A stretch of DNA of 64,000 nt, taken from Candidatus Enterousia sp. Lineage in GTDB: Bacteria; Pseudomonadota; Alphaproteobacteria; Rs-D84. The position numbers were made by a program, and so were the translations under genes. Where the stretch lies: NCBI GenBank assembly GCA_045645645.1, contig JAZRJE010000020.1, positions 2,249 to 66,248 on the forward strand, in the 5' to 3' direction. The notes beneath the pieces were generated by a model. The model made no database searches and was not told the DNA's origin. It was given only the letters and a program-made list of their open reading frames with translations. This document shows positions 22,506-41,608 of the stretch, piece after piece; position 1 is the stretch's first letter, and the number at the start of each line of letters is the position of its first letter.

Positions 22506-22571
22506 CTGTAATACAGATTTTTACCTTTGAATTTTTATTAAAATATGTTAGAATTTGCGGTAAGAGAGAAT

Positions 22572-25151: not shown

Positions 25152-25859
25152 TTAGTTTGTTTCAGTGCGTATTAATTGTGATTTTTTATACATTGTTTCA
25201 AATTGTTTTTCTGCATCGGCCAGTGTTTTGGGTGCGTCCCCTTGGGGGGCGGTGAAATCTGCACCGTTATGTATTATTAAACGTATGCCATCAGAATGTT
25301 CACAATCAATGTGGTATTTTGATTTTTCATATTTCTTGCCGTGGCAGCGACCGTTTTTTATACCGATATATTCTTCGTTCGCCAGTTCTTGGCATGTTGG
25401 TTCGGTGGAACGCAAAAGAATGCTGCCTGTGGCTAATTTTTCTGTTTCGTCAGAATAGAAAACGTTTTCTAAGATGCCTGGACAGAATACTTTGACTTGT
25501 TGGCCGTCTTTGGTGGCAAAAAGTCCGTTAGAAGATGTTTTGCGTGCGCCAAAACATTCGCCGTTTAATATATTTGTGTCATAATCTGCATTGATGTTCT
25601 TGCGTGCAGATATGTCTTTCTTTGTCATTGCTGTATTTTCAGTTGATACAGGATCTTGGGCGGCGCCACATATTATTTTTTGTCCCCAACATTCTGATGT
25701 TTTGTCCCAATATTCTGCTTCGAATCCGATACCCATTGTGGTATAGCAATTTGATGGATCTAAGCGACATATGGTGTCTTGTTCCCACCATTTGATGGCA
25801 CAATGTGCATATGTTGTATTAATAATGATTGCCAAGGATAATAAAGATATTTTTTTCAT
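25152..25859 (-). CDS. Secreted Cys-containing protein
   Basis: Signal peptide MKKISLLSLAIIINTTYA; ten Cys; lies 9 nt downstream of the 25869..28439 gene. Confidence 0.7.
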   Translation of the reverse strand: MKKISLLSLAIIINTTYAHCAIKWWEQDTICRLDPSNCYTTMGIGFEAEYWDKTSECWGQKIICGAAQDPVSTENTAMTKKDISARKNINADYDTNILNGECFGARKTSSNGLFATKDGQQVKVFCPGILENVFYSDETEKLATGSILLRSTEPTCQELANEEYIGIKNGRCHGKKYEKSKYHIDCEHSDGIRLIIHNGADFTAPQGDAPKTLADAEKQFETMYKKSQLIRTETN

Positions 25860-25868
25860 TTTTGGTTT

Positions 25869-28439
25869 CTATTGTTGTTGTGTTGTTGTGGTCGAAATAA
25901 GCGCATTTGTACAATAGCCCCATTCTGTATTTGCGCCTGTTTCATTGTAGAATACTTTATTTAATTCGTCGCCAGTAGCGTCGTGTTTTCCGTCTGCGTT
26001 ATTTGTGCATGTTTCATTCCCACTGGCGTTTGTTGTACAATTTATCTTACCTGATTTATCAACCCAGGCAGAATCAATCCACAGACCACCCAGACGTTCG
26101 CATTCTTCGGCCAGGTTTTTACCCATGTCTATTCTTATTTTATCCATTACAATGTTAACGTCTTGTAAAACATCAATTGAAATAGTGTAATTAGGATTAT
26201 TTGCATCGGATGGGCGTACACATGTTTGTAGCGCATAACGTACCAGACGTTGATACATACTGCCTGCATAATTGCCACAAGTGTTAAGCAGTTCTTCAAT
26301 GTTTGTTGATGGGTCTATTTCTGTTATCCCAGAAGTTGGTTCCGATGTGCCGCCAGGGCATCTGGTAGAGTTTGGATCGTATTCAGGGTATTTTGAACAT
26401 ATTTGACATTGATAGCCGCATTCATCAGAATCTCCAATAGGCAAGTCGTTTTCATCAGCAAGATAGTAACCAACGTGACAACTTGTATAACAACGTCCGT
26501 CTACGGGGCATGTATAAGTTGATGGCATGTTGGGGGTTATTTCTGTGATTTCAAATTCTTCATTAGTTGGTAGGTTTGATCCAGATGGAATGTATGCGTT
26601 GTTTGAAGAATTGTATCGATCCCATATTTGTTGGTTGCATTCTGCGTTTTGGGCGTATTTTTGTTCCCCTGGGGCGTATACGCGACATGCGTATGGATAC
26701 GAGTGTAATGTGTCGTTGCTGGGGGTCGTGCATAAATCTTGGGCATATTCTTCTAGTGCAGTTTTACAGTTTTGTGCAATCTTCGCGTCTGTAATTTCAT
26801 GCATTGCGACCACCAGTTCTTTTAATCCAATAGGGCCACCACCATATAGGTTTGAGCACGCATCTAATTTTTCACGACATAATTCTTCAGAAAGCTCTAA
26901 ACGTTGACCTAATAGCAGCTGTTCTTTAACATTGCTAAAGTCTTTTAATGATTGGTTTTGTTCGTCATAACATGTGGTTACTACATCCAGACACTCATTT
27001 TTTACCTGACGAATGCGTTCTTGCTGGTATTGGTATATTTCCGCTATTGATTGACGCAAGAATTCATCCCAGACTTGGTCGGATAAATCACGACATTTAT
27101 CCAGACTGTTCGCTGCAAATGAACGCATGCGATTCAATTCCGCCAGAATTAAGCGGTTTGTCTGATTTGATAGTACGTCACCAGATAATGATATTTGACC
27201 GTCTAGTTGGTAAAATTGAGGTGAATATATCGGTTGGCCTGTTTCGCGGTTTAAATAACGACCAGATACATCCAGACAATGAACAAAATTTGTGCCACAT
27301 GCATTTTTAGCTGTCAGATCGCGACGTACGTTGGCAACACATTCGTTGATATATACAGAATTATGTGAATTGTAATTGTCAAGACGTGCGGTGTGCATTG
27401 TTCGTTCCGTTTCGCGAACGCTACCCTTAGCTGCGTTTATTTTAGTGTCCAAATTGTTTGCCAATGCTGTACAATCGTTTTCAATATACATCCCATATGC
27501 AGATACAACCATATTTAGTGTAGCTTTTGATGAGCATGTTTCAGAAATCATAGCAACGCATTGGGAATGAACGGCGTTGTATAAAGCTTCACCACTAAGA
27601 TTTGCAATATTTGCGCCGTCGGCTAAATCGGTGGTGGACCAAATTTGTTTTATGTCGCCGCCAGCATCCAATGTACCAGCAGTGGATAGGGCTTGTGATT
27701 TTGTTTTGTTTAATACGTTTGTTATGTTTGATAGTTGTTGTGCTGATGCTGATTTGTCTTTGGATTGGGATGCTAATGCTTCGCCACTGCTGGCTGAAAT
27801 CATGGCCGTTACTTCTGCACCAGTTTTATCAATTACACTGATGTTAAAGTCATGAAAGTCTTGTAGTTGACTGGCCGTTTGTGATAATAAACTTTCTCGT
27901 TGTTTAATTTCGTTCAATCTGGAAGAACATGCACAACGACGATAGGATTCATTTTGAGCTGCGCAGAATTGATCCATACAGGTAAAGTATGCATCACGAC
28001 AGATATTGTATTCTGAACCAAATGTATTTGATTCCATTCCTGGTGTTACAACAGCAGCACGACTGACGCGTGATATGCTAGTTTGTTTTTTGTTTGTTGT
28101 GCGTGTACTGGCAATTTGCTTTCCAGTACGTGGCGCATTTTTTGCAGTTTGTTGTACCGATGGTCGCACAATAGTGCCACGAACAATGGTGTTGTTTGAG
28201 CGTTGTGTTTGAGATGTTATATTGCGAGATGTAACCTGTTGTGGACTGGTTTCACGTGGTGTGGTTGTGCGACTGACTGTCTTAGAAGAAGTGCGTGGGT
28301 TATTGTTTGTATTTCCACGGGTGACAATCTGGGGAGCTACGTTAGTGTTTCTGTTAACTGTATTTGCATCACGAACAGCAGCGTTGACAATGCCAACGCA
28401 TGAAAAACATGTCGCAATAAATAATGCCGTCTTTTTCAT
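25869..28439 (-). CDS. Large Cys-rich secreted protein, family member, with a basic T/R/N-rich disordered N-terminal region
   Basis: AAGGA SD. Signal peptide MKKTALFIATCFSCVGIVNA. CRDAYFTCMDQFCAAQNESYRRCACSS, CGTNFVHC, CLDVVTTC, CREKLDAC. Confidence 0.85.
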   Translation of the reverse strand: MKKTALFIATCFSCVGIVNAAVRDANTVNRNTNVAPQIVTRGNTNNNPRTSSKTVSRTTTPRETSPQQVTSRNITSQTQRSNNTIVRGTIVRPSVQQTAKNAPRTGKQIASTRTTNKKQTSISRVSRAAVVTPGMESNTFGSEYNICRDAYFTCMDQFCAAQNESYRRCACSSRLNEIKQRESLLSQTASQLQDFHDFNISVIDKTGAEVTAMISASSGEALASQSKDKSASAQQLSNITNVLNKTKSQALSTAGTLDAGGDIKQIWSTTDLADGANIANLSGEALYNAVHSQCVAMISETCSSKATLNMVVSAYGMYIENDCTALANNLDTKINAAKGSVRETERTMHTARLDNYNSHNSVYINECVANVRRDLTAKNACGTNFVHCLDVSGRYLNRETGQPIYSPQFYQLDGQISLSGDVLSNQTNRLILAELNRMRSFAANSLDKCRDLSDQVWDEFLRQSIAEIYQYQQERIRQVKNECLDVVTTCYDEQNQSLKDFSNVKEQLLLGQRLELSEELCREKLDACSNLYGGGPIGLKELVVAMHEITDAKIAQNCKTALEEYAQDLCTTPSNDTLHSYPYACRVYAPGEQKYAQNAECNQQIWDRYNSSNNAYIPSGSNLPTNEEFEITEITPNMPSTYTCPVDGRCYTSCHVGYYLADENDLPIGDSDECGYQCQICSKYPEYDPNSTRCPGGTSEPTSGITEIDPSTNIEELLNTCGNYAGSMYQRLVRYALQTCVRPSDANNPNYTISIDVLQDVNIVMDKIRIDMGKNLAEECERLGGLWIDSAWVDKSGKINCTTNASGNETCTNNADGKHDATGDELNKVFYNETGANTEWGYCTNALISTTTTQQQ

Positions 28440-28489
28440 CCTTAAATAATTATCTTTAATAATAACAAATAATCAAAAAAAATACTAAT

Positions 28490-28518
28490 AAAAAAATCCC
28501 ATCTGAGTGGGATTTTTT
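28490..28518 (-). terminator. Rho-independent terminator after infA
   Basis: ATCCCA-TCTGAG-TGGGAT flanked by an A-run and a T-run. Confidence 0.7.
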
Positions 28519-28759
28519 AATTTTGTTCTGTTGGTGACTTTGTTCGTTCGACAAATGTTATTCGTCCCTTGTCCAGGTCGTATGGGGTCATTTCAACGCG
28601 TACGCGTTCGCCAACGTTTACCCAGATGCGTGCCTTGCGCATTTTGCCGCATACGGTTGCTAAAATTTCATGTCCATTTTCAAGTTTTACGCGAAACATT
28701 GTATTTGGTAATTTGTCTTCAACTGTGCCGCTAAAAACAATAACGTCGTCTTTTGCCAT
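28517..28759 (-). CDS. infA: Translation initiation factor IF-1
   Basis: [69 protein letters not shown]. Confidence 0.95.
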
Positions 28760-28889
28760 TTGTAATCCTTGTTAATTTTCTGCGAATAATGGTATTATGT
28801 TGACGAAAAAAAAGCAAGATTTTTTTATTTTCTTGTGTGTTAGTAAAATATTTGATAAAATTATCTTAAATTTTGTATGGGGGCTTATT

Positions 28890-31064
28890 GTGAAATTAGG
28901 AATTCTTGCGACTTTATTGTGTGTTTTGCCAGGCTTGTCTATGGCTGATTCCCGTGGAGAAGAGGTGCGTGTCGGTGTTAAGCGTGCGTCTAATGCTGCT
29001 GCGCGTATGCCGACTTTAACAGCGTATACAGGTGGTGGTGTGCCGTCCACGGTTAATGTTTCAAAAAAAGTTACGGTGAAGGATAGTGTCGCAGATACTG
29101 AGAAGGTGCCTGATGTTCCAGAAGAAGTGCCTGGTGATGATGGTGTAGGTGACGAATCGGGTAATAGTACGCCTGTTGTTAATGGAAATTGTCGAGATGC
29201 GTATCGTGAATGTATGGACTTGTTTTGCTTGCTGGATGAGTCAGAGGGAAATCGTTGTGCCTGTTCTTCTAATATAGAGAAGTCTAAAGGGTTGATTCAA
29301 GAAATACAAAATATTCAGTTAGAGGCAGATAAGTTGTACACAGAGGGTGTCGAACGTGAACAGTTGGGCGCCAAGGCAAGGTTAGTGTTTGGTGAAAGTG
29401 AAACGGCTAAGAAAAAATCTGTTTTTTCTGGGTTTGATTTTGCAGCATGGGCTAGTGGTGGTGTTGATGATGAAGAAGGTGAATTGGGTGAGGATCTAGA
29501 TATAGGTGATGCGCTTTATGAAATGGCTGCAGAACAATGTGCGGCTGAGCTGGAGGCCTGTGGTTCCAAGGCAGAGATGGAAGAACTTTTGTATTCGCGT
29601 CAAATAACGGCAGATTGTAAGGCTTTTAATTTGTACTTAAATGAGCAGAAGCTAAATGCACAGGCAAATAAGCGTACGGCTGAAGCTGCTGTGCGTAAAG
29701 CGCGTTTGGAAATGTTAGATACAACCAACAAATATAATCAAGGAGAATGTTTGCTGGCGTATCGTGCCTGTATCGCCGATAAAGGTGGTTGCGGATCGAA
29801 TTTTGAAAATTGCTTAGATGCTGATTTGTTGGGACGTCGTGCCAGTGCTTGTGAAAATGTTTTGGATCAATGTATGGCTGTACGTGATTATGTTTTGAAA
29901 GATTGGCAGGCAGAATCGGAGGCGATTTTAGTTGATGCTGCGAAGTATGCAGATAAGTATCGTCGTCAAACTTGTTTGGCGCAAATTCAGGTTTGTTTGG
30001 AAGATGGTTGTTCGACATCTACAAATTCAGCTTGCTTGTCAGATGTAAATGTTGCAGCAGGCGTTTGCCCGATTATTGATGAGTGCGATTCGATTGTGCC
30101 AGGGTTGAAGTCGGTTGTTAACGATAAGTTGTTCTATCTGCGTACGCAGTTTTGTCAGAATGATGTAGATGCATGTCTGCGTGATAAATGCGGTGAAAAC
30201 TTTACAGCGCCAGAGTGTGTTGGTAAGAAGACGTCTGATATTGTTGCGTTGTGTCCACAAAATATGTTCCCTTCATGTAAAACGGAACCACAGTTTGATA
30301 TAATTGTTCAGGCTGTATTGTTGCAGATGGATTATCAGTTGATGCAGGGATGTGTAAATTATTTTGGTGAACAGTTGGGTAAAGTTTGTGGAACAGACAT
30401 GGCTTGTTTGCCATCAGATTCTACGGTTGAAAGCTTGCAAAAGTTGCCAGAAAGTGCAGATGGAATTGCACAGTTGCGTGCGCAGGTTCAGGCGAATTCT
30501 GTGGCGGCGGTTGACGAATTTTTTGCTCAGTTCCAGCAAGATGTGACAGTGGCTGCATGTATGGATAGTGAAAAGCCAAAGGGGCAAAAGAGTTTGGGTG
30601 ATACTGTGTTTACATCTGCAAAAATGATTGCGCGTATTGGTGCTGAAAATCGTGCGTTACGTGCATTGGAAACTAAGATTGCAGAGTTGTCTCGTCAACA
30701 AGATTTAGAAGAAGCAGAAGCAAACTGTTATAATACGTATAAGGTGGAAACACCAGATAAATCAGCGAAGAATTATAGTTATGTTCGCAGTGTAGCGTTT
30801 GAACCATCGTTGCGTAATTGTCATGTATGTCGTATGCAACAGGTTTGTGAAACTGGCGGTGAATCTAAGGCAACTTCTGCATTAAAAGCGGCTGCTGGCG
30901 GTTTGTCTGCTGGCGCATCTGCTGGCACAATGATTAGTGCTGGTTGGGGAACTGCGATTGGTGGCATAGTTGGTGCTGTTGGTGGGGCTATTGGCGGTGC
31001 GATGTCTGGTGGAAAAAAAGATTTTTGCCAGGAAATCGAATCGTGTGAAGATATAAATATGTAA
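28890..31064 (+). CDS. Large Cys-rich secreted protein, family member, with a C-terminal glycine zipper and a CEDINM tail
   Basis: GTG at 28890 after GGGGG gives the signal peptide VKLGILATLLCVLPGLSMA; the ORF-track ATG at 28797 would add a non-signal extension running into the infA promoter region. CRDAYRECMDLFCLLDESEGNRCACSS, CLLAYRACIADKGGCGSNFENC, CQNDVDACLRDKCGENF. Confidence 0.85.
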   Translation: MKLGILATLLCVLPGLSMADSRGEEVRVGVKRASNAAARMPTLTAYTGGGVPSTVNVSKKVTVKDSVADTEKVPDVPEEVPGDDGVGDESGNSTPVVNGNCRDAYRECMDLFCLLDESEGNRCACSSNIEKSKGLIQEIQNIQLEADKLYTEGVEREQLGAKARLVFGESETAKKKSVFSGFDFAAWASGGVDDEEGELGEDLDIGDALYEMAAEQCAAELEACGSKAEMEELLYSRQITADCKAFNLYLNEQKLNAQANKRTAEAAVRKARLEMLDTTNKYNQGECLLAYRACIADKGGCGSNFENCLDADLLGRRASACENVLDQCMAVRDYVLKDWQAESEAILVDAAKYADKYRRQTCLAQIQVCLEDGCSTSTNSACLSDVNVAAGVCPIIDECDSIVPGLKSVVNDKLFYLRTQFCQNDVDACLRDKCGENFTAPECVGKKTSDIVALCPQNMFPSCKTEPQFDIIVQAVLLQMDYQLMQGCVNYFGEQLGKVCGTDMACLPSDSTVESLQKLPESADGIAQLRAQVQANSVAAVDEFFAQFQQDVTVAACMDSEKPKGQKSLGDTVFTSAKMIARIGAENRALRALETKIAELSRQQDLEEAEANCYNTYKVETPDKSAKNYSYVRSVAFEPSLRNCHVCRMQQVCETGGESKATSALKAAAGGLSAGASAGTMISAGWGTAIGGIVGAVGGAIGGAMSGGKKDFCQEIESCEDINM

Positions 31065-31089
31065 ATAGATACAGAATAAGAGAGAGAGT

Positions 31090-33585
31090 ATGAAAAAAGT
31101 TTATGCATTATGTGGTGTCTTAGCATCGGTGTTGTCATTGTATGCAATGGATGCATCGGCGGCGACTAAGAAAAAGACCTCAACAACAAAACAGGCTGCG
31201 ATTCAAAAGGGGACGTCTGTTCGTGCCAAGGTGACGGCATCTAACCTGTATGATCAGGAATGTTATGATGCGTTCTATGGTTGTATGGATCAGTTCTGTA
31301 TTTCTGATACGTCCAATGGTGGCAGTTGTACCTGCAGTGATTTGTCACTTGAATATGAAAAGAAGTTTGCCAAAGTCCAAGAAAAAATGATAGAAGCTGA
31401 ACGAATCGCAACAGAAGAAGTTGAACGTGTTCAGGCTGGTGCTGATGCCGATATTATCTTTTCTGGTAAACGTGTTTACGATGAAGATGGTAATATTGCA
31501 GATGCTGAACAGGACAAGCAGAACGATAAAGATAAAAAGCGCAAAGAATTACTGGCCATGTTTGAAAATGACTGGTATGACGATGAAGAAGAAGAACTGG
31601 TTGATATTTCTTCGTTAGAAGGGGATGAACTGTTTGCCGCAGCCGAAGAATTGTGTATGGAACAGGTTCCAGAATCCTGTTCTAAGGATTTAACACTGCT
31701 GCGCCAGATGTATTCACGTCAAATTGTGTCTGATTGTAAAGCGTTTGAAAATACAATCGCAGCCAAGGAAATAGAAGCAGATCGTGCCATGACCGCTGCC
31801 GAAGGTGCAGTTCGTGCAGCCTTAAAAGAAAGTTTTGACAGCGCAAATAAATATGATTTGGGTACGTGTATGGTTGAATTTAAAAAATGTATGCGCACCG
31901 AAGATGCCTGTGGTGAAAATTGGGAAAATTGTGTTTCAACAATTGCATCTGAAAATATGCAGAATGAAAAAACAAAAAGTGTTGCTGGGACAACTATTGA
32001 AACAATTAATACATATGATATCACTGCTTCAACAATGGAAATTTTGGATTCAAAACGTATAATTTGTGAACGTGTTTTGGATAACTGTGTCGCGGTTCGT
32101 GATAATGTTTGGCCTGCTTTCCTGCGTGAGGCTGCACCGACGATTCGTGTTGCGGAAACTGCAGCAGAATCCAGAATGCGTCAATCGTGCTTGACTAATA
32201 TTTCAAAATGTATTCAAAAGGCCTGTAAAGATGACATTGTTGGCAAAGGTGTAGATACAATGGATGCATGTTTGTCACGTCCAGATATGGCACGCAGTTT
32301 TTGTAAGGTTGAAATAGATCCTTGTGAACGTATGGAACCGTTAATTTGGGGGTATGTCGTTGATAAATTGGCGGCAATGCGTGTTGATGCATGTACACAA
32401 GAAGTCAAAGATTGTTTTACAGCTGAAACACGTTGTGGTGAAAACTTTGAAAATTGTATAGGTATGGATTATGATTTCATCCATGATATTTGTCCGATTG
32501 ATAGTCTGGTTGTGTGCAAGGCGAATAATCCAAAATTCTCGATGGATGATTTGGATTCAATGTTGATGGGATTGTATTTGAACATAGACAACAGTGCATT
32601 GGATAACTGTCAGGAAATTGTTGATAATAAAATGGCAGAGATTTGTGGTTCTACGACAGACTGTAATGTATTTGCAACAGATGAAGTTTTGGGAACTGGC
32701 AGTTTGTTATCGCAGAAAGATGGGAATGTATATCGTGTAACTGGAATGATATCGTTTGGTGATATCAAGATGGGCAGTGCCAGTGTGACCAAAGATGAAT
32801 CTGAAAAACTGCAACCAGGTCAAATTGGTATAAAAGAATATATGAATAATGTACGTTCAAAGAATGAGAATGTAAAGAATAGTACAGAAATAATTGCGAC
32901 GATTGAGACAGAACTGGAACATATTGCTGGGACGATAAATCGTACAATTGAATTGATAGAATTGGATCCTAAGGTACAATTTTGTATCAGTGGTCGTGAT
33001 TTATCGCAGATTACAGGAAAAAAGAATGCGAAGACAGGCGCACGTTTTCCGAATCTGTTAAATCAGAAGAAGGTACAAATTGCGGCATCAGCGTTGCGCA
33101 AGGCACAGGATAACTATAATGCGAAGTTCCAAAAGCTTGTAGCAGAAGCCACCAAAGACGCCGATGCGGATTTGGCGCAGTATATGTGTCAGCGCTTAGC
33201 GGCGACAGATGGTGAATTGATTGGGGGGCTGAATTCAGATGTTGATACGCCATTGGCACCACCATATGCGATTTCTTATGATGTTGGTGCAGGCTTGAAC
33301 AGTAGTGATTTGTTAACTGGTGGTCATTCGTCTGTTGAAGGATTAAATTCTTCTGTAGACTTTTCCAAGAAATCAACAAAACACAAGTTTGAGGGGGCTG
33401 GTTATACACGTGAAGCATGGTCAACATATGATCGTGAATCCAGAATCTGTCATTTTTGTACCAGCACGATTACACAAAAGTGTGAAACTAAAAAAAGTAG
33501 CGGGTTCCTGGGAATAGGTGCAAGTCAAAAGGCAAGTTGTACGCCGTCTGAACCTGTGGAAAAGTGTGAAGATATCAAAATGTAA
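31090..33585 (+). CDS. Large Cys-rich secreted protein, family member, with a CEDIKM tail
   Basis: TAAGAGAGAGAG precedes the ATG. Signal peptide MKKVYALCGVLASVLSLYAMDASA. CYDAFYGCMDQFCISDTSNGGSCTCSD, CMVEFKKCMRTEDACGENWENC, CTQEVKDCFTAETRCGENFENC. Colinear with the 28890 gene. Confidence 0.88.
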   Translation: MKKVYALCGVLASVLSLYAMDASAATKKKTSTTKQAAIQKGTSVRAKVTASNLYDQECYDAFYGCMDQFCISDTSNGGSCTCSDLSLEYEKKFAKVQEKMIEAERIATEEVERVQAGADADIIFSGKRVYDEDGNIADAEQDKQNDKDKKRKELLAMFENDWYDDEEEELVDISSLEGDELFAAAEELCMEQVPESCSKDLTLLRQMYSRQIVSDCKAFENTIAAKEIEADRAMTAAEGAVRAALKESFDSANKYDLGTCMVEFKKCMRTEDACGENWENCVSTIASENMQNEKTKSVAGTTIETINTYDITASTMEILDSKRIICERVLDNCVAVRDNVWPAFLREAAPTIRVAETAAESRMRQSCLTNISKCIQKACKDDIVGKGVDTMDACLSRPDMARSFCKVEIDPCERMEPLIWGYVVDKLAAMRVDACTQEVKDCFTAETRCGENFENCIGMDYDFIHDICPIDSLVVCKANNPKFSMDDLDSMLMGLYLNIDNSALDNCQEIVDNKMAEICGSTTDCNVFATDEVLGTGSLLSQKDGNVYRVTGMISFGDIKMGSASVTKDESEKLQPGQIGIKEYMNNVRSKNENVKNSTEIIATIETELEHIAGTINRTIELIELDPKVQFCISGRDLSQITGKKNAKTGARFPNLLNQKKVQIAASALRKAQDNYNAKFQKLVAEATKDADADLAQYMCQRLAATDGELIGGLNSDVDTPLAPPYAISYDVGAGLNSSDLLTGGHSSVEGLNSSVDFSKKSTKHKFEGAGYTREAWSTYDRESRICHFCTSTITQKCETKKSSGFLGIGASQKASCTPSEPVEKCEDIKM

Positions 33586-33610
33586 AAATCCCCCGCACGG
33601 GGGATTTTTT
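33584..33610 (+). terminator. Rho-independent terminator
   Basis: AAAAATCCCCC-GCAC-GGGGGATTTTTT. Confidence 0.85.
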
Positions 33611-33781
33611 ATGGGGGTGTTTGTTTGGGTATATTTGACATGGATGTTTTTTTTAGTTTTTTTTGCTTGTGAAAAATGGCCATATAATATATCATATATA
33701 GTGTATAGGAATGTATATAGTGTCGATACAGAAAACTGTTGTCGTGTGTGGTTTTGCTGAAAAAGATAAGGAAGTTAAGGG

Positions 33782-34474
33782 ATGGGATTGTGTAATTTAA
33801 GGCCATTTAAACGTTTTTTATTGTTTGTTCTTATGGCGTTGATAGATATGTCTTATCATACCAAGTTGTTTGCGTACAGTTTGACTGCTGCGGAACGTCC
33901 AAATTGTGGTACTGCTGCGGGGCAGGCATGTGCAGGTTTTTCGACGGGGATGTATTTGTCTGTGGTTGGTGCATCCAATTTAATTATATTAAGTGATAAT
34001 GCTGATTTGTATAAATTGTACAGTAGTACCAGTGCAGGTGTTTCTGGATATCGCAGTATATGCATTTGTTTCACGAAAACAGAATTAGAAAAATTACAAA
34101 GTTGTGACAGAAATTATGGCAGTTGTGGTACAGGGGCCACAGGTATGAGGATGCATGTTTTGCGTTCAGGGCGCAATTCGACAGGTCATCAACATATATC
34201 GTGCGGTGTCTATATGGGTGGGTGTACATGTAATTCGGGATATTATGCGATTATGAATGGGTGTCTGCCGTGTTCAAAAGGGTATTATTGCCCGAAAAAA
34301 ACACCTGTACAATCTACTTATGCTGCGGGGGGCAGTACCCAGTGTCCAACCCCAGGGGTAACAGCGGGTGCTGGGGCGAACAGTATATCCAGTTGTTATA
34401 TCCCGACAGGGTATGTTGGTAAGTCCAATGGCCATACGTATAAATATGTTGCGAATTGTTTTTATGGTAGTTAG
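33782..34474 (+). CDS. Small secreted Cys-rich protein, tandem paralog 1 (GCC2/GCC3-like repeat)
   Basis: AAGGAAG/TAAGGG SD region. N-terminus FKRFLLFVLMALIDMSYHTKLFA. CTCNSGYYAIMNGCLPCSKGYYC...CPTPGVTAGAGANSISSCYIP. Confidence 0.75.
   Translation: MGLCNLRPFKRFLLFVLMALIDMSYHTKLFAYSLTAAERPNCGTAAGQACAGFSTGMYLSVVGASNLIILSDNADLYKLYSSTSAGVSGYRSICICFTKTELEKLQSCDRNYGSCGTGATGMRMHVLRSGRNSTGHQHISCGVYMGGCTCNSGYYAIMNGCLPCSKGYYCPKKTPVQSTYAAGGSTQCPTPGVTAGAGANSISSCYIPTGYVGKSNGHTYKYVANCFYGS
33845..33876 (+). repeat. 32-nt segment identical to 35316..35347 (signal-peptide region of paralogs 1 and 3)
   Basis: GATATGTCTTATCATACCAAGTTGTTTGCGTA is read at both places. Confidence 0.9.
34030..34075 (+). repeat. 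46-nt segment identical to 35501..35546 (paralogs 1 and 3)
   Basis: CAGTGCAGGTGTTTCTGGATATCGCAGTATATGCATTTGTTTCACG is read at both places; it encodes SAGVSGYRSICICFT. Confidence 0.9.
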
Positions 34475-34500
34475 GGGGACAGAATTTATTTGTTTTGTGG

Positions 34501-34530
34501 TTGACAGGTATTGAAATCTTGTGTTAGAAT
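34501..34530 (+). promoter_or_regulatory. sigma70-like promoter candidate (TTGACA-18-TAGAAT)
   Basis: TTGACA at 34501-34506 and TAGAAT at 34525-34530; a GGAGGAA SD precedes the ATG at 34578. Confidence 0.45.
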
Positions 34531-34577
34531 TCGTGGCAAAGGGTGGTTTTTGTTAATTATTATGGAGGAAAGAAACT

Positions 34578-35237
34578 ATGCGGGCCGTTGATTTAAGTTT
34601 TTTTAAAAGGTTTTTTTTGTTTGTGTTGGTGTCGTTGATTAATGTGGTGTATAACACGAATTTGTCTGCGTATACGACCCAAGCTGCAGTAAATGGCAAC
34701 TGTACAGCATCAACGACAGGGTGGTCCTGTAAACGTATTTCTTCATGGGGCGAATCATTTATCCAAGGCCCAGTTAGTTTATATAATACAGCAGTTGCTA
34801 ACCAAGTGTGTTTGTGTTTAAGTACCGCAGAAATGAATTCTGCCACTAATTGTAGAACAGCATCCAGTGGTAGTCCAAAAAGATGTAACGCCATGTATAC
34901 TGGAACGATGGGTACGATGGGTTATATTTATTATGATGTTGTTGCGAAATCATGTAACGGCACACTTGATTGTTATTGTGACGCAGGTTATTATGCTGCT
35001 AATTCAAAGACATGTACCAAATGCAGTGGAAGCTATTATTGTGCAGGTAAAGGTAACATGGTATCACAAGTGGGTGGTATTGGACTGGCAACAAGTAAGG
35101 CTTGCCCAAGTCCAGGGACAACCGCTGGTGGTGCAACGACTATTGGCAGCTGTTATATTCCTGCAAACTCACTTATTACAGAAAGTGGCACTGGGCATAC
35201 ATATGATTATGCGTATGATTGTTATTATGCAAGTTAA
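34578..35237 (+). CDS. Small secreted Cys-rich protein, tandem paralog 2 (GCC2/GCC3-like repeat)
   Basis: N-terminus FFKRFFLFVLVSLINVVYNTNLSA. CYCDAGYYAANSKTCTKCSGSYYC...CPSPGTTAGGATTIGSCYIP. Confidence 0.75.
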   Translation: MRAVDLSFFKRFFLFVLVSLINVVYNTNLSAYTTQAAVNGNCTASTTGWSCKRISSWGESFIQGPVSLYNTAVANQVCLCLSTAEMNSATNCRTASSGSPKRCNAMYTGTMGTMGYIYYDVVAKSCNGTLDCYCDAGYYAANSKTCTKCSGSYYCAGKGNMVSQVGGIGLATSKACPSPGTTAGGATTIGSCYIPANSLITESGTGHTYDYAYDCYYAS

Positions 35238-35252
35238 ATTGTGGGGAAAGAT

Positions 35253-36026
35253 ATGCGACAGATTAAGTTGACATTATTTAAGCGTTTTCTGTTGTTTTTT
35301 TTGATGCTTTTTGTTGATATGTCTTATCATACCAAGTTGTTTGCGTATGTTTTCACTGGTCATAATATGTCAAATTGTGGTATTACAGCTGGGCAAGCAT
35401 GTTCTGGTTATTCTTCTGGGGTTTATGTAACTCTCCTTAGTCAGCTAAATATAATGGTGTTGAGTGAAAACAAAACTCTTTATGGTTTAATATCGAGTGG
35501 CAGTGCAGGTGTTTCTGGATATCGCAGTATATGCATTTGTTTCACGCAAGCAGAATTAAGTAAATTACAAAGTTGTGCAAGCAGTAGTTATGGCAGTTGT
35601 GGTATGGGGGCTACTGGTACGGCTATGCATGTTTTGTATGAAGGGCAGGATGCTACAGGTAATGAACATATATCATGTGGCAGATATAAGGGGGGGTGTA
35701 TATGTACTTCGGGATATTATGCGGTTGTGAATGGATGTGTTATGTGTTCTAGTGGATATTATTGTTCTTCTAATACACATGTTTATTATGATCAGGCAGG
35801 GGGGGGAAGTAAGGCTTGTTCACTAGGCTATTATCAGCCAAATACAGGTCAGATCTCTTGTTACCGTTGCCCAAGTGCATCATCTGTATCTGGTACGGCA
35901 TATGGTGTAACAGCAAATACTGGGGCAACGTCGGTTACGGATTGTTATATTGCTTCTACACAGAATTTACAGGATGCATTTGGTTTTTTCAATTTTAGTA
36001 AAAATTGTAGTGCGCAGGCTTCGTAA
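35253..36026 (+). CDS. Small secreted Cys-rich protein, tandem paralog 3 (two GCC2/GCC3-like repeats)
   Basis: GGGGAAAG SD before the ATG at 35253 (the ORF-track start 35241 is GTG). LFKRFLLFFLMLFVDMSYHTKLFA. CICTSGYYAVVNGCVMCSSGYYC and CSLGYYQPNTGQISCYRCPSASSVSGTAYGVTANTGATSVTDCY. Confidence 0.75.
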   Translation: MRQIKLTLFKRFLLFFLMLFVDMSYHTKLFAYVFTGHNMSNCGITAGQACSGYSSGVYVTLLSQLNIMVLSENKTLYGLISSGSAGVSGYRSICICFTQAELSKLQSCASSSYGSCGMGATGTAMHVLYEGQDATGNEHISCGRYKGGCICTSGYYAVVNGCVMCSSGYYCSSNTHVYYDQAGGGSKACSLGYYQPNTGQISCYRCPSASSVSGTAYGVTANTGATSVTDCYIASTQNLQDAFGFFNFSKNCSAQAS

Positions 36027-36039
36027 AGGATTAATGAAT

Positions 36040-36177
36040 ATGAGTAAAAAGGAAAAAATGAAAAAAATGGCCGAAGATTTCTTGTGGGCGAATGCTGGGG
36101 ATTCTGTGGGCTGTTATGGGGGGGGAAAACGGGTGTTTAAAAAAATGCCATGGTATAAAATGATGCAAGGTAGTTAA
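36040..36177 (+). CDS. Possible 45-aa ORF between paralog 3 and the first GT2 gene
   Basis: AAGGA lies 9 nt upstream of the ATG at 36040. MSKKEKMKKMAEDFLWANAGDSVGCYGGGKRVFKKMPWYKMMQGS. It contains a G8 tract and ends 3 nt before the GT2 start. Coding status is unproven. Confidence 0.3.
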   Translation: MSKKEKMKKMAEDFLWANAGDSVGCYGGGKRVFKKMPWYKMMQGS

Positions 36178-36180
36178 GCA

Positions 36181-37182
36181 ATGAAAAGTAACCCAAAAAA
36201 GATAGAAAAAGTAATAAAAACTAATAAAAAACCAGCAATTTCAATAATTGTTGCTAATTATAATAATGATATTTATCTGGATGATTGTATCCGCAGTATT
36301 GTAACGCAGTCATTTTCTGATTTTGAATGTATCATTATCGACGATGGTTCAACGGATGGTTCAAAACATATTATAAACCGTTGGGCAAAACAAGATCCAC
36401 GTATTATCCCAGTGTTCCAAGAAAATAAGGGGGCGTCTGCAGCACGTAATGTTGGCTTAAATATGGCACGTGGACGCTGGATCGGATTTTTGGATGCAGA
36501 CGATTGTTTTTGTGCAGATGGTTTAAAAGTTTTATATGAATGTGGTGAACAAAATTCTGCTGATATTGTTGGTGGCGGTGGTGTGCGTGTGCCAGATGAT
36601 TTTAAGCTGGGGGATGCAAAATCGACAGCAAATTTTACAAATCCACCCTTTATTATTTTAGGTTTTAATGACGCTGATGTGGTCAAGATGGAATATTTGG
36701 GTGAAACACATCGTTTGGTGTGGGTCTGGCGCAGGTTGTTCCGTCGTGAAGTATTAGAAAATGTGCGTTTTGATGAAAATTTGTATCCTGGGGAAGACAC
36801 GTGCTTTATCTATGAGGCTTTGCCACGTGCGGGACGTATCATCGAATGCAGGGGGATGGTTGTTTATCATCGTATGGCGCGTCGTTCGGTGTCTTCGGCA
36901 CCGTTTAACCAGAAGTCTTTTAACTGGATTGTGCCAACAATGAAGCGTTTGCGTTGGATCATGGATACATATTATTCAAAACGATATCAAAAACACTTTT
37001 ATAGCCATTACTTGGATATGTTGACGTTTGAAATCGTTGTTAGAACACTTGGTAACGGGCGCATGATGTATGAAGCGGCGCATCACCTGCGTGAGATATA
37101 TGGGACTAGATTTTTCCCAACAAAATATATGAAGCGTAGCCGTCGTATAATTTTATGGTTGTTTATGAAAATTTTCGGGTAG
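36181..37182 (+). CDS. Family 2 glycosyltransferase
   Basis: ISIIVANYNNDIYLDDCIRSIVTQSFSDFECIIIDDGSTDGS and GFLDADD. Confidence 0.85.
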   Translation: MKSNPKKIEKVIKTNKKPAISIIVANYNNDIYLDDCIRSIVTQSFSDFECIIIDDGSTDGSKHIINRWAKQDPRIIPVFQENKGASAARNVGLNMARGRWIGFLDADDCFCADGLKVLYECGEQNSADIVGGGGVRVPDDFKLGDAKSTANFTNPPFIILGFNDADVVKMEYLGETHRLVWVWRRLFRREVLENVRFDENLYPGEDTCFIYEALPRAGRIIECRGMVVYHRMARRSVSSAPFNQKSFNWIVPTMKRLRWIMDTYYSKRYQKHFYSHYLDMLTFEIVVRTLGNGRMMYEAAHHLREIYGTRFFPTKYMKRSRRIILWLFMKIFG

Positions 37183-38253
37183 GTGCACATGAAGTTATCT
37201 GTAATTGTACCATGCTATAATGTTGCGCCATTTCTGTCACGCTGCTTGATGAGTCTGACAAATCAAAGCGTGACTGATTTGGAAATTATTTGTATCGACG
37301 ATAAATCAACTGATAACACATTAGATGTTTTAAAAATGTGTGCAAGGGAAGATTTGCGTATTCGTATCATTGAAAATGATGAAAATATGGGCGTCGGATA
37401 CAGCAGAAATCGTGGATTAGATGCTGCAACTGGTGAATATGTTGGATTCGTCGACCCAGATGATTGGGTTGATACCGATTTTTATGAAAAGTTGATTAAG
37501 GTAGCTGAAAAAACAAAAACGCCAGTAGTGTGCGGTGATGTTTTTGAACACCCTGTTACAGGCAAGCCATTTCATAGAAATGCGAATTTTAAGCGTTCTG
37601 GCCATTGGCATTGGATGGGATTCTGGTCAGCGGTTTATTCGCGTGATTTTCTGAATCAATTTAATTTGTTTTTCCCAAGCTTGGTTATCGGTGAAGATTC
37701 TGTGTTTGAAGCAGCCGTAAAAGTGCATATGCCAAAATCGATTGGTTATGTGTCTGGGACTGCGTACCATTATGTCCGGCGAATCGAAGGCGCAAATGTT
37801 CATAAATGGTCTGATAAACAAATGAATGATTATATCAGCGCAGTTGAACAGATTGTAGATATATATAATATGGCCGATAATGTTACACCAGATAATTATA
37901 ATGTTGGTGTGGTTATGTATTTCTTTTCTCATTTATGTAATGCGATATATCATAATTCGCCAGAACAAGGAAAAAAGATTGCACAAGCGTTGTGTGGAAT
38001 TTCAAAAAAATTAAAATATGTTCAGGGTTTCTTTGACAAAAGAGCTGATCTGCTGACTGCGTTGGTGCGTAATGATCCAGATGCAGTTATTGAAGATATG
38101 AAGGTACATCGCTATTATTATATTTCATATAGGTTGCCAGGAATTAAAAAGCCAGTTATGACAGTCAAATATAATAAAAAATGTAAAGTAGTTAGGTTGT
38201 TTGGTATGAGAATACTGGAACGGCATTACGAAGAACAAAATACATATATTTAA
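37183..38253 (+). CDS. Family 2 glycosyltransferase
   Basis: LSVIVPCYNVAPFLSRCLMSLTNQSVTDLEIICIDDKSTDNT and GFVDPDD. The start is GTG 37183 or ATG 37189, immediately after the upstream stop. Confidence 0.85.
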   Translation: MHMKLSVIVPCYNVAPFLSRCLMSLTNQSVTDLEIICIDDKSTDNTLDVLKMCAREDLRIRIIENDENMGVGYSRNRGLDAATGEYVGFVDPDDWVDTDFYEKLIKVAEKTKTPVVCGDVFEHPVTGKPFHRNANFKRSGHWHWMGFWSAVYSRDFLNQFNLFFPSLVIGEDSVFEAAVKVHMPKSIGYVSGTAYHYVRRIEGANVHKWSDKQMNDYISAVEQIVDIYNMADNVTPDNYNVGVVMYFFSHLCNAIYHNSPEQGKKIAQALCGISKKLKYVQGFFDKRADLLTALVRNDPDAVIEDMKVHRYYYISYRLPGIKKPVMTVKYNKKCKVVRLFGMRILERHYEEQNTYI

Positions 38254-38276
38254 AAACGCCCCAGCGGGGCGTTTTT
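38252..38276. terminator. Bidirectional Rho-independent terminator
   Basis: AAAAACGCCCC-AGC-GGGGCGTTTTT lies between convergent genes. Confidence 0.85.
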
Positions 38277-39573
38277 AATTCAGTAAATCATTACTTTTTA
38301 TGTATTCGGAATCTGTTTTCTTAAGATGTTTTTTTGCCGTGTTCGCGTATTTGTGGGCTTTTTCTGTGTCGCCCAGCAGGTTATAATATTCTGCCATTGC
38401 CCATGCGCTGCGACCAGGATCTGTATCATCATATGCAAGGGATAAAACCCAATATGCCAGTGGGGTAGGTGATGATAATATAGATCGCTTACATAATTCA
38501 ATTGCACGTGTTTTATCATATGGTTTGTTTCGCTCAGTCAGGACCAACGCCAGTGCGGTTTCTATCTGGGGGGCGTTGTTTAACTGTTTTAGTGATTGTT
38601 CGTATGCGTATACACTGTCATCATAATGACCAAACTGATATTCTATGTCGCCCAATAATTCATAAAAATAACCATTGTCAGGTTGACGCGATATTAATGT
38701 CTGGGTGCCTGTACGAGCTGCGTCCAAATTCCCGCCACGCATGTTTGCAATTGCACGTGCATAAATAGCTGCATCCGATTTATCAGAATATGGATATTTG
38801 GTTAGAACAGTTTTTGATGTGTCTAAATAGCCAATCAGTTTTGCACGAATCATTTCAAATTGGGGCGTAGTTGTATCGGCTGATAATGATGAATGTTTTT
38901 CTAGATATTGTTTGGCGTTGTTTAGACGTTCTCGTGTAAGTGGATGATTAATGCGATTGGGATTGATACGACTTTCCAATGCGCTGGTTTGATCATGCAT
39001 TTGTTCGAAAACTGTGATAAACCCATTTGGGTTTAAATCTGCTTTTATCATTAATTCTAGACCAAGTTTATCTGCAATACGCTCTTCGTCACGTGAAAAT
39101 GACATCATGGACTGGTTCGCAATTCCACCAGATCCAGCCAGTACCCCAGCGCCTAGTGATGGGTTGCCACCAGCAACCATTAGACCGACCCCTAAAGCTT
39201 GTATAAGCATCGTTCGCTTCATTTCTGCATCCATCCGAGCGGATAGTTGCGCCATGTGTCCACCAATCGTGTGGCCCAATTCGTGGGCAATAACAGCCTG
39301 AAGTGCAGCTGGTGTTTTAATTTGTTTCAACAGCCCAGTGTAAATATATACGTCTTCGCCACCACGAACAAACGCATTAAAGTCATCATCATTAACAATA
39401 TGTATCTTTAATCTATTTGATGGAATATCTGCAGCAGAGGCCAAGGGATTGACCAGTGACGTTAGCATATATTCTGTTTCTGTATCATTAATTAAGGTCA
39501 TGCCATATGTCGGAAACACGAGTAGTATAGATAATAAAAATGTAATAATTTTATGCACCAGCGACCACCCCAC
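38275..39573 (-). CDS. M48-family zinc metalloprotease with a C-terminal TPR region (BepA-like)
   Basis: N-terminal hydrophobic leader. HELGHTIGGH (HExxH). TPR-like repeats in the C-terminal half. The start overlaps the recG stop by about 20 nt. Confidence 0.8.
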   Translation of the reverse strand: MGWSLVHKIITFLLSILLVFPTYGMTLINDTETEYMLTSLVNPLASAADIPSNRLKIHIVNDDDFNAFVRGGEDVYIYTGLLKQIKTPAALQAVIAHELGHTIGGHMAQLSARMDAEMKRTMLIQALGVGLMVAGGNPSLGAGVLAGSGGIANQSMMSFSRDEERIADKLGLELMIKADLNPNGFITVFEQMHDQTSALESRINPNRINHPLTRERLNNAKQYLEKHSSLSADTTTPQFEMIRAKLIGYLDTSKTVLTKYPYSDKSDAAIYARAIANMRGGNLDAARTGTQTLISRQPDNGYFYELLGDIEYQFGHYDDSVYAYEQSLKQLNNAPQIETALALVLTERNKPYDKTRAIELCKRSILSSPTPLAYWVLSLAYDDTDPGRSAWAMAEYYNLLGDTEKAHKYANTAKKHLKKTDSEYIKSNDLLN

Positions 39574-41608
39574 GATTAAATATGTACATTAGAGTTTGTG
39601 TCCATTCGTCAATAGTATTATCACGTGCAGCATTAGCAGCTAGTTTAAATAAATCGCGATGTTCACGATAGTCTACAAAATGATATTGTATCCAGCCACT
39701 TTGTTTCGTGCCCATTAATTCGCCGACACCACGCATCATAAGATCTTGTTCTGCAATTGCAAAACCATCATCTGTTTCACATAACACATCTAAACGCTTT
39801 AATCCGTCATCGGATAAGTTGTTGCCAAAAATTAGAACGCAATACGATTGTGTATTGCCGCGCCCAACACGCCCGCGTAACTGGTGTAGTGCTGCCAGAC
39901 CAAAGCGCTCTGCATTTTCTATAACAATAATGGATGCGCGTGGAACATCTATGCCAACTTCTATGACAGTGGTGGCCACTAAAATTTGCATGTCAGATTG
40001 GTCGTCTGCAAATTCTTCCATAACCTTATCCCGTTGCTTTTTATCCATTTGACCATGTACCAGACCTGCTGTGGGAAAGTATTGTGTTAACATTTTGTGA
40101 CGATCAGCCACTGCTGTTATATTTGTGTCAGTGTTTTCGGCTTCTTCTACAAGTGGACACACCCAAAAAACCTTAGCCCCGCTTGCAATTTGTGGTCGTA
40201 GACGTTCAATCAATTCATTAAGTCGCAACATTGGAAGCTTAGTTGTTTTTATAGTTTTGCGACCCGCTGGCTTCTGGTTTATTATTGAAACATCCATATC
40301 ACCATATATTGTCATCGATAGTGTTCGTGGTATTGGGGTCGCAGACAGTGCCAATAAATCTGGATTGTTGCCTTTTTTGCGCAGGGATTCACGCTGATTA
40401 ACACCAAAGCGATGTTGTTCGTCAATAATAACCAAGCCTAGATCTTTGTATTCAACGTCATCAGAAAATAAGGCGTGTGTACCAATTATTAGGCGTGTGC
40501 GACCTGATTTTAGTGATATCAATTTTTCACGACGGGCAATACCTTTGTCGCGCCCAGTTAATATGTCGCAGACAATGCCAATTTTATCGCAAAGTTGTCT
40601 TAATTTAGTGTAGTGCTGTTGTGCCAAAGTGTCTGTTGGGGCTAATAATGCGGTACATGCCCCTGTTTCTGCCATTTTTACGGCTGCGGCCATTGCAACA
40701 ATCGTTTTGCCACTGCCAACATCACCTTGAACCAGACGCATCATAGGAATTGGTTGCTGCATATCGTTAAATATTTCATCGCAGGTTCGTTTTTGAGCGT
40801 TTGTCATATCAAATGGTAAATTATTGTAAAATTTTTCCATAAGATTGTATTTTTTTGTACGAACTGTACGGTGATTGCGTGCATCAGTGCGATTCCGACG
40901 ACTGATGACAATTGCTGATTGATGTGCTAATAATTCACAGTATGCCAGTTTTACCATATATGTTGCATTTGGTTGCAAGTCGTTTGCTGATTCTGGAAAG
41001 TGTACATGTCGCAGTGCATCAAAAAATTCGTGTATGCGTTCATCTGGTTCGTTTGAAAGTTTGCTTGGAAGAATTGCAAAAATTTGCTCACGTATATTGG
41101 CAAATGTTTTTTGAGTAAGGCCTTCACCAGCAGGATAAATTGCTTGAATAGACGGTATCTTAGATGCGTTTTGCAATTCTTCGATAAATTCTGGGTGATT
41201 AATCGTCGGACGTGCGTTACGTTCTAATTTTCCAGATATTATACGCCATTCACCAACGGGAAGTTTTTTTAACCAATAATCTAGATAATTTGAATTAAAA
41301 AACTGAATAATGACAGTGTTTCCGATTTTGTCATTGCATGTTATTTGGGTCGGGCGTTTACGTCCACGAAAAAAACCACTGGTTTTATGGTTTTTGATAA
41401 GCAATGGAATCGTTATTGTGTCGCCTGGGGTTGTGTCCATTACATTGTCAGTAATATCACGTGCACGAACATATGATGGGCGGTGTAACAGAAAGTTTAA
41501 TACTTTTCTGCCCCCAAGAACTTCTTCAAGGCGTGTTGCTAATACTGGGCCAACACCCTTAATAAATTGTAAATCAGTGTTTAGAAAATCAATAAGTTCT
41601 TTTTTCAT
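39551..41608 (-). CDS. recG: ATP-dependent DNA helicase RecG
   Basis: Wedge/OB N-terminal region, GDVGSGKT, IIDEQHRFGV, SATPIPRT, QLRGRVGRG. Confidence 0.93.
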   Translation of the reverse strand: MKKELIDFLNTDLQFIKGVGPVLATRLEEVLGGRKVLNFLLHRPSYVRARDITDNVMDTTPGDTITIPLLIKNHKTSGFFRGRKRPTQITCNDKIGNTVIIQFFNSNYLDYWLKKLPVGEWRIISGKLERNARPTINHPEFIEELQNASKIPSIQAIYPAGEGLTQKTFANIREQIFAILPSKLSNEPDERIHEFFDALRHVHFPESANDLQPNATYMVKLAYCELLAHQSAIVISRRNRTDARNHRTVRTKKYNLMEKFYNNLPFDMTNAQKRTCDEIFNDMQQPIPMMRLVQGDVGSGKTIVAMAAAVKMAETGACTALLAPTDTLAQQHYTKLRQLCDKIGIVCDILTGRDKGIARREKLISLKSGRTRLIIGTHALFSDDVEYKDLGLVIIDEQHRFGVNQRESLRKKGNNPDLLALSATPIPRTLSMTIYGDMDVSIINQKPAGRKTIKTTKLPMLRLNELIERLRPQIASGAKVFWVCPLVEEAENTDTNITAVADRHKMLTQYFPTAGLVHGQMDKKQRDKVMEEFADDQSDMQILVATTVIEVGIDVPRASIIVIENAERFGLAALHQLRGRVGRGNTQSYCVLIFGNNLSDDGLKRLDVLCETDDGFAIAEQDLMMRGVGELMGTKQSGWIQYHFVDYREHRDLFKLAANAARDNTIDEWTQTLMYIFNRGVVAGA

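Follow-up and report, generated by a model that had tools for sequence, protein, structure and literature searches.

A tandem array of three small, cysteine-rich paralogs from an unannotated alphaproteobacterial family resembling ephrin-receptor-like repeat proteins

Within a stretch of 64,000 nucleotides from Candidatus Enterousia sp. (hereafter the window; contig JAZRJE010000020.1, positions 2,249 to 66,248 of the forward strand, GenBank assembly GCA_045645645.1), three tandem genes at window positions 33782-36026 encode small, cysteine-rich proteins, here called p1, p2 and p3. The genes are paralogs of one architecture (a leader, an N-terminal domain or N-domain, a block of hairpin repeats and a C-terminal tail), are native in composition, vary strongly between strains and belong to a family whose members are mosaics of one another; for the C-terminal half, the model favours a fold of the Ephrin-receptor-like or TNFR-like class. 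We consider it fairly probable that they form a tandem array within a multigene family, so far unannotated, whose small, disulfide-rich products are exported as surface or secreted proteins and evolve under diversifying selection in uncultured Alphaproteobacteria. This family is undescribed in Pfam, in NCBIfam and in the literature searched, and the repeat itself is of a known kind; what defines the family is the combination of leader, seven-cysteine N-domain, variable hairpin block, terminal C-Y-I-P...C-Y-Y module, alphaproteobacterial distribution and strain-level hypervariability.

Three paralogs and the predicted fold of their repeats

All three genes lie on the forward strand. The first, p1 (33782-34474, 230 aa), consists of a leader (aa 1-31, 33782-33874), an N-domain with seven cysteines (aa 32-147, 33875-34222) and GYY hairpin repeats that run into the C-terminal module (aa 148-230, 34223-34471). 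The same layout is found in p2 (34578-35237, 219 aa, with the ribosome-binding site GGAGGA), the most divergent of the three, with its leader at 34578-34670 (aa 1-31), seven-cysteine N-domain at 34671-34970 (aa 32-131) and repeats and tail at 34971-35234 (aa 132-219), and in p3 (35253-36026, 257 aa from the ATG at 35253), with its leader at 35253-35345, seven-cysteine N-domain at 35346-35696 and repeats and tail at 35697-36023. An alternative GTG start at 35241 would lengthen p3 to 261 aa (35241-36026); the ATG is judged the better start because it is the one used in the public gene call (P0001), yields the N-terminus typical of the family (MRQIKL) and follows a purine-rich ribosome-binding site (GGGGAAAG).

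The original prediction of three tandem paralogs at 33782-36026 was borne out by the open reading frames and by BLASTP similarities far above chance between p1 and p3 (53% identity, E=2e-73), p1 and p2 (32%, E=2e-20) and p2 and p3 (26%, E=2e-7). A hidden Markov model (HMM) of the tail module detected exactly three copies within the 64-kb window, and the cysteine content of the three proteins (6.5-7.0%) is far higher than that of the housekeeping genes in the window. The sequence motifs named in that prediction were recovered with one correction. The shared N-terminal motif reads FKRFLLFVL in p1, FKRFFLFVL in p2 and FKRFLLFFL in p3, DMSYHTKLFA is present in p1 and p3, and C-x-C-x-[SA]-G-Y-Y-A...C-x2-C-S-x-[GS]-Y-Y-C occurs in all three; the C-terminal pattern takes the form CPTPGVTAGAGANSISSCYIP in p1 and CPSPGTTAGGATTIGSCYIP in p2, and p3 carries the additional CSLGYYQPNTGQISCYRCPSASSVSGTAYGVTANTGATSVTDCY. 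The GYYA motif itself stands, and the spacer that follows it is 4 residues long in p1 and p3 or 5 in p2, instead of the 3 or 4 proposed.

These patterns had been read as GCC2/GCC3 repeats in all three proteins, which holds for p3 at the level of Pfam and not for p1 and p2. The segment of p3 at 35811-35945 (+; aa 191-235 in the numbering from the GTG), which spans the extra repeat and the first half of the tail, matches positions 12-48 of the 48 in PF07699 (Ephrin_rec_like, formerly GCC2_GCC3) with 33.1 bits (E=4.9e-8; gathering score 23.1), while p1 and p2 have no Pfam match even at E<=10, and a profile of p1/p2-type sequences only reached EphA2 in the PDB at a non-significant E of 0.59-6.5. 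Homology ties them in nevertheless: with all close relatives excluded, a tail HMM trained on 94 distant members scored p3 at E=6e-13, p1 at 3e-9 and p2 at 0.03 (E for a nominal database of one million sequences). On the strength of this model and the BLASTP matches (2e-73, 2e-20), with p2 tied in via p1, we assign p1 and p2 to the repeat family as carriers of putatively degenerate repeats, which makes them repeat proteins only through family homology. The other profiles suggested by the original prediction, TNFR_c6 (PF00020), furin-like and the Giardia variant surface protein (VSP) family, found no match in p1-p3.

Among 38 members of the wider family described below, 21 matched PF07699 (E<=0.01) and six matched the ELAPOR1 TNFR-like model, compared with one for TNFR_c6 (E=0.009), none for furin-like models and two sub-threshold matches to Giardia VSP (PF03302), the best of which reached 22.9 bits against a gathering cut-off of 31.4. 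The minimal member P0046, only 111 aa long, covers the full 48-position PF07699 model with 36.4 bits. The idea that the repeat is of eukaryotic type was likewise supported: a 129-sequence family profile searched against solved structures retrieved Chlamydomonas Mst1 (7e-14), ELAPOR1 (1e-7) and EphA2 (1e-4), and Foldseek comparison of the p3 model ranked thyroglobulin, Mst1, Eph receptor cysteine-rich domains (CRDs) and TNFRs highest in the PDB and found a giant-virus Ephrin_rec_like protein in BFVD (E=3e-5). That model, made by AlphaFold (AF2) with the 129 sequences, has a predicted local distance difference test (pLDDT) score of 74.6 overall and of 83-97 over residues 150-257, where it consists entirely of short beta-hairpins; an alignment of eight sequences gave a pLDDT of 32. 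Ephrin-receptor-like or TNFR-like cysteine-rich hairpins are therefore the probable fold class predicted for the C-terminal half.

Resemblance of this kind could also arise by convergence, in which case the bacterial repeats would not be homologous to eukaryotic Ephrin_rec_like and the C-x-x-G-x-Y...C-x-x-C-P hairpin would have been reached independently as a simple disulfide ladder. The similarity does consist mostly of cysteines, glycine and tyrosine, HMMER reported high compositional bias in the Mst1 alignments, p1 and p2 are without a Pfam match or a significant match of their own profile to Eph structures, and the fold matches in the PDB have E above 1e-3. We nevertheless regard convergence as rather unlikely, given that p3 and 21 of the 38 members pass or approach a curated Pfam threshold, that P0046 aligns over the full model, and that the G-A-T-S..C end of the repeat is held in common beyond the cysteines.

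A wider bacterial family and its origin

An exhaustive HMM search of a library of 1.84 billion representative proteins (E<=1e-3) recovered 220 related proteins, more than 100 of which are small and secreted. The family is visible only to such a search, as word-indexed searches with p3 alone or with a five-sequence profile returned only 3-6 near relatives. Its most conserved part is the terminal module, present in 106 of the 129 small members aligned, which reads C-x-x-C-P-S-x-G-G-x-x-G-T-T-x-x-x-G-A-T-S-I-T-x-C-Y-I-P-x-G-x-x-x-x-D-x-x-G-x-Y-x-F-x-x-x-C-Y-Y-x-x and then stops, with the final cysteine four residues from the protein end in 75 of the 129. This module is composed of the last half of an Ephrin_rec_like repeat and an extension of about 25 residues (C-Y-I-P...D..G.Y.F...C-Y-Y-x-x) that matches no Pfam or NCBIfam model; NCBIfam likewise gave no match for p1-p3 or for ten canonical members, and no earlier description of such bacterial proteins was found in the literature searched.

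About a quarter of the members, including the three in the window, begin with a putative extended signal peptide, a 31-residue leader of the form M-R-x-I-K-L-S-x-F-K-R, a hydrophobic core and Y-H-T-x-L-x-A|Y (with K-L-S/T-x-F-K-R as a variant of the n-region), and the remainder have ordinary short signal peptides. In 16 of the 18 members with the long leader the cysteine count of the N-domain is exactly seven, and in this subgroup the stretch from C-x-C-x-x-G-Y-Y to the end always holds an even number, from 8 to 24. The even counts suggest that the repeat block grows by two-cysteine hairpin units, and the odd count in the N-domain, set against even counts elsewhere, that one N-domain cysteine is probably unpaired; applied family-wide, this parity test depends on where the leader is cut.

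In p1-p3 the leaders have a dibasic n-region, a hydrophobic core at residues 12-24 (h-region Kyte-Doolittle 2.6-2.8) and an A|Y site, and neither a later transmembrane (TM) or hydrophobic segment nor a lipobox was found in the three proteins, from which we infer export by Sec. Other routes fit less well. A Tat signal, for which a near-invariant R-R in S/T-R-R-x-F-L-K was taken as the criterion, was rejected because the dibasic pair is K-R in these leaders and mostly K-R or K-K in the family (K-H, N-K and R-K are also common, R-R occurs only twice) and because of the strong hydrophobicity of the h-region; in addition, Tat handles proteins with many disulfides poorly. A lipoprotein was rejected on the cleavage region (...K-L-F-A|Y or ...N-L-S-A|Y), with no cysteine nearby, and an ESPR domain on the lack of a Pfam match in p1-p3. 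For known C-terminal sorting domains (PEP-CTERM, T9SS CTD, MYXO-CTERM and similar), no NCBIfam model matched p1-p3 or the ten canonical members, and the tail is polar, ending C-Y-Y-x-x.

Members of the family are scattered singly among housekeeping genes, with bacterial housekeeping neighbours around those at L004, L007, L008 and L012. All four members that carry a source name are labelled 'MAG: hypothetical protein [Alphaproteobacteria bacterium]', and a scan of a genome collection (GTDB) returned one locus, in a metagenome-assembled genome (MAG) of 'Proteobacteria bacterium'; the GTDB representatives do not include the genome from which the window comes. Look-ups of protein clusters and literature searches by accession yielded neither taxonomy nor habitat for the family, though sample labels such as XIEF21-1 may be codes from a survey of the ruminant gut. 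No copies were found in plasmid or phage records, and thus there is no sign of mobility. Other bacterial architectures exist, as in P0079, which combines CarboxypepD_reg domains with the tail. P0142, of 1071 aa, has a weak N-terminal methylation (N_methyl) motif and four Ephrin_rec_like repeats, and a prepilin-like gene (L004 6904-7368, minus strand; N-terminus ...GRSMIEMLGVLAIMGV...) lies 2.3 kb from a family member in the Proteobacteria MAG, hinting that the repeat may also be used in pilin-like bacterial proteins.

The original prediction had raised horizontal acquisition and host mimicry, namely that the genes or their repeat domain were acquired from a host, protist or animal, and mimic one of its surface receptors. 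In its favour, solved structures and the literature place the repeat type overwhelmingly in eukaryotes, and the profile matches include eukaryote-like multi-repeat proteins, of which the best, P0014, is encoded on a contig with eukaryote-style gene models. The composition of the three genes is native, however, with GC of 0.39-0.42, GC at third codon positions (GC3) of 0.27-0.34 and codon usage all within the normal range of the window, from which a recombinase-bearing island at 51-53.7 kb stands out with a GC3 of 0.46. The close relatives, which form more than 100 clusters at 50% identity, are all small bacterial proteins; P0014 resembles them in the periodicity of its cysteines only, with 25-32% identity per single repeat; and the leader, N-domain and C-terminal extension are absent from the eukaryote-like matches (the extension segment scored -3.2 bits against Mst1). 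In Eph receptors, moreover, ligands are bound by another domain and the cysteine-rich module serves as a spacer, which leaves mimicry without an obvious ligand. Native composition, bacterial relatives and a likeness confined to the repeat pattern thus leave recent eukaryotic transfer and mimicry unsupported, and we judge this explanation very unlikely. Further back in time, the domain may have come by ancient transfer, by common descent or by convergence. The sequences instead point to a deep native bacterial family, which differs from the picture in an earlier survey (PMC6993872) in which the domain arose in early eukaryotes, was reported from only one bacterial protein (of Ilumatobacter coccineum), itself one of a handful of scattered prokaryotic records of Eph or ephrin domains, and had its rare bacterial occurrences ascribed to transfer.

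If so, the range of the fold is widened to a deep, expanded and unannotated bacterial family built on a repeat treated as a eukaryotic invention, which carries the caution that 'eukaryote-like' domains are not by themselves evidence of mimicry or recent transfer. For annotators, this is a definable new family whose named members are all currently called 'hypothetical protein'.

Strain variation, recombination and putative role

We compared the array with other strains represented by metagenome contigs, one of which (L001) covers window positions 34852-39724; p1 was compared with a second (L002). At the DNA level, L001 is 97-100% identical to the window over the two family-2 glycosyltransferase (GT2) genes and the M48 peptidase gene that flank the array, and only 80-93% identical inside p2 and p3. 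The flanking proteins are conserved, with identities of 98.8% for GT2a (ratio of non-synonymous to synonymous rates, dN/dS, 0.21; dS 0.024), 98.0% for GT2b (0.20; 0.042) and 99.8% for M48 (0.15; 0.007), compared with 82.5% for p3 (1.43; 0.074), 73.8% for the C-terminal part of p2 (1.16; 0.129) and 90.9% for p1 (0.29; 0.166). The dN/dS of p2 and p3 is thus far above that of the flanking genes, though based on few synonymous changes, and the raised dS in the array suggests old alleles or gene conversion. In the p3 ortholog of L001 (L001 385-600 against window 35238-35470), a frameshifting deletion of 23 nt directly follows a 125-nt leader region that is 100% identical, and does not lie at a repeat tract; this ortholog may be either a pseudogene or the product of an assembly error.

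Modules of the same proteins have different histories. The N-domains of P0006 and P0007 are 28% identical and their tails 98%, the leaders of P0005 and P0006 are 57% identical and their tails again 98%, and p1 and p3 show the reverse, with N-domains 60% and tails 27% identical. Discordance of this kind between modules indicates that paralogs have probably recombined, and p1 and p3 also share an 82-nt patch at 91% identity over a background of ~73%. The gene for P0006 lies elsewhere and follows an M23 peptidase gene (L005, L006), a position where another species has two tandem members (L007). Contig L013 (1-1331) carries the 3' end of p1, the p1-p2 spacer and the 5' part of p2 (window 34283-35095, 92%), and its remainder matches the M23-adjacent locus from the 3' part into the downstream flank (L005 1581-2570, 95-100%), so that the hybrid gene P0005 joins the two; the contig could represent either a real inter-locus recombinant or an assembly chimera.

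Mechanistically, we propose that the proteins would be exported by Sec and then folded oxidatively in the periplasm into short rigid rods, which may either sit on the surface of the cell envelope or be released from it. Export, and docking or assembly, would be the tasks of the conserved leader and tail; paralog recombination, together with relaxed or positive selection, would diversify the N-domain, the number of repeats and the type of tail, as expected for surface or secreted proteins that face a changing partner, be it host immunity, phage, predators or competitors. The family would accordingly evolve like a contingency or surface-variation family, and would be a likely host- or phage-facing surface component in poorly known uncultured Alphaproteobacteria.

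Several observations weigh against this account. The differences in p3 amount to 8.7 synonymous versus 43.3 non-synonymous, and its dN/dS is not significantly above 1; as the values above 1 rest on such small counts, relaxed constraint is equally possible, and p1 has a ratio of 0.29. The strain data come from metagenome contigs, so both the L001 frameshift and the L013 junction could be assembly artefacts. The N-domain was modelled at a low-confidence pLDDT of 50-68, and no Foldseek match in the PDB is better than E=8e-3. The loci compared across genomes yielded no conserved partner gene, secretion system or anchor, and the localisation and function of the proteins are inferred.

A stronger version of the account treats the family as a bacterial counterpart of the protozoan variant surface families, in which leader, N-domain, repeat block and tail would be reshuffled as cassettes between dispersed and tandem loci, varying the surface against host immunity, phage or predators, and in which the unpaired cysteine and the C-terminal module would give covalent docking to the envelope. 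We put this forward only tentatively and consider it, on balance, doubtful. Classical phase variation was rejected as the source of the variability, as the array contains neither inverted repeats nor simple-sequence tracts and no repeat lies at the site of the 23-nt deletion in the other strain.

Genomic surroundings and comparison with known systems

A terminator-like hairpin with a T run (TCCCCCGCACGGGGG followed by ATTTTTTATG; 33589-33611, +) closes the upstream 831-aa gene and appears to mark the start of the array's own transcription unit or units. In the p1-p2 spacer, a candidate sigma-70-like promoter (34501-34530, +) reads TTGACA-18-TAGAAT with a TG extension and matches the consensus at 11 of 12 positions, a consensus match only. 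Since p3 begins 15 nt after the p2 stop, p2 and p3 are probably co-transcribed. Two GT2 genes follow p3 at 36181-38253, an arrangement kept in the other strain (L001), and no terminator was found between p3 and these genes. Neither the glycosyltransferases nor the M23 peptidase was accepted as functionally linked to the array, as the neighbours differ from genome to genome.

The 13-kb stretch that ends with the array encodes many other secreted cysteine-rich proteins. Among them are the large secreted proteins of a second paralogous family, encoded at 25869-28439 (-), 28797-31064 (+) and 31090-33585 (+); these have 755-856 aa and 35-38 cysteines each, share the motif C-x-[DE]-A-[YF]-x-x-C-[ML]-D-x-F-C (mutual BLASTP E of 2e-54, 4e-17 and 3e-18), match nothing in Pfam or NCBIfam and are unrelated in sequence to the small family. 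Further open reading frames with signal peptides and 4-6% cysteine, without family assignment, lie at 2-1138 (-), 1142-2080 (-), 22545-24419 (+) and 25152-25859 (-), and, for what appears to be an anaerobe, the region as a whole encodes unusually many exported proteins with a high cysteine content.

Such surroundings raise a further explanation, in which the small proteins would be structural components of a disulfide-cross-linked outer-envelope layer formed with the large cysteine-rich neighbours, the odd cysteine providing an intermolecular bond. The odd N-domain count is kept (seven in 16 of 18), the 13-kb stretch with its second paralogous family (25869-33585) would supply partners, and the Ephrin_rec_like protein Mst1 forms a filament in Chlamydomonas (according to PDB titles). 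Structural proteins are usually conserved, however, whereas the array genes are hypervariable, mosaic and apparently dispensable in one strain; the large cysteine-rich genes were not seen alongside small-family members in the other loci fetched; and the members stand singly among housekeeping genes. We think a structural layer quite unlikely, and infer no functional coupling because both the cysteine-rich neighbours and the glycosyltransferases are absent beside family members in other genomes.

Being small, rich in cysteine, quick to diversify and equipped with a signal peptide, the proteins also recall toxin and inhibitor families, and members follow an M23 peptidase gene in two related genomes, as might be expected of a secreted disulfide-rich effector (a toxin, bacteriocin-like peptide or protease inhibitor) acting against competitors or host enzymes. 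No toxin, bacteriocin, immunity or defence model in Pfam or NCBIfam was matched, though, and no adjacent immunity or export genes were seen; the M23 adjacency is probably plain synteny of related genomes, and the most conserved part of the proteins is the tail rather than a candidate active site. An effector role is therefore highly improbable in our view, and a diversifying family of surface or secreted proteins remains the reading we prefer.

Elsewhere, the window encodes an autotransporter, BamD, a SurA/PpiD-like chaperone, OmpA, MurJ and RlpA, which is the gene content of a diderm bacterium, and an anaerobic ribonucleotide reductase pair that is 79-97% identical to the NrdD and radical-SAM genes of a related contig (L012). 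A large serine recombinase gene (51066-52652, -) extends with its 3' end into a tRNA-Arg(ACG) gene (51034-51110, +), and the genes at 51034-53680 have a GC3 of ~0.46 against a window mean of 0.32, suggesting a mobile element integrated at tRNA-Arg over this interval. Strand asymmetry is pronounced across the whole window, with a coding-strand GC skew of 0.2-0.39 for forward-strand genes and ~0 for reverse-strand genes; the cumulative skew climbs over most of the window, which fits a strong replication-strand bias with most genes co-oriented.

Compared with known systems, the array resembles the PF07699 proteins (Eph receptor CRDs, Mst1, ELAPOR1 and thyroglobulin) in the pattern C-x-x-G-x-Y...C-x-x-C-P-x-G...G-A-T-S...C and in the predicted disulfide-ladder beta-hairpin fold. 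Those proteins are large, extracellular and multidomain, from eukaryotes or giant viruses, whereas the members of the bacterial family have 65-340 aa and 1-8 repeat units, together with a leader, a seven-cysteine N-domain and a C-Y-I-P...C-Y-Y extension that the eukaryotic proteins lack. The VSPs of Giardia (PF03302) offer a functional analogy, as they too form a multigene family of cysteine-rich extracellular repeat proteins that diversifies by recombination. They carry a TM anchor and a CRGKA tail, in contrast to p1-p3, which have no hydrophobic segment after the leader and end in C-[YFS]-x-x-S, and there is no evidence of mutually exclusive expression in the bacterial family. The leader recalls ESPR (type V secretion) and YSIRK-G/S (Gram-positive surface proteins), which are n-region signal motifs that influence the route or site of secretion; the likeness is that a whole family of surface proteins has an added, conserved motif in the n-region. 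The array motif (K-L-S-x-F-K-R...Y-H-T) does not match them in sequence, and any similar role is putative. Finally, YM304_37510 of Ilumatobacter coccineum is a bacterial PF07699 protein as well and was interpreted as a rare transfer from eukaryotes (PMC6993872); that protein, large and equipped with a HYR domain, is a lone case from an actinobacterium, whereas the alphaproteobacterial family is expanded, small, equipped with flanking modules of its own and hypervariable.

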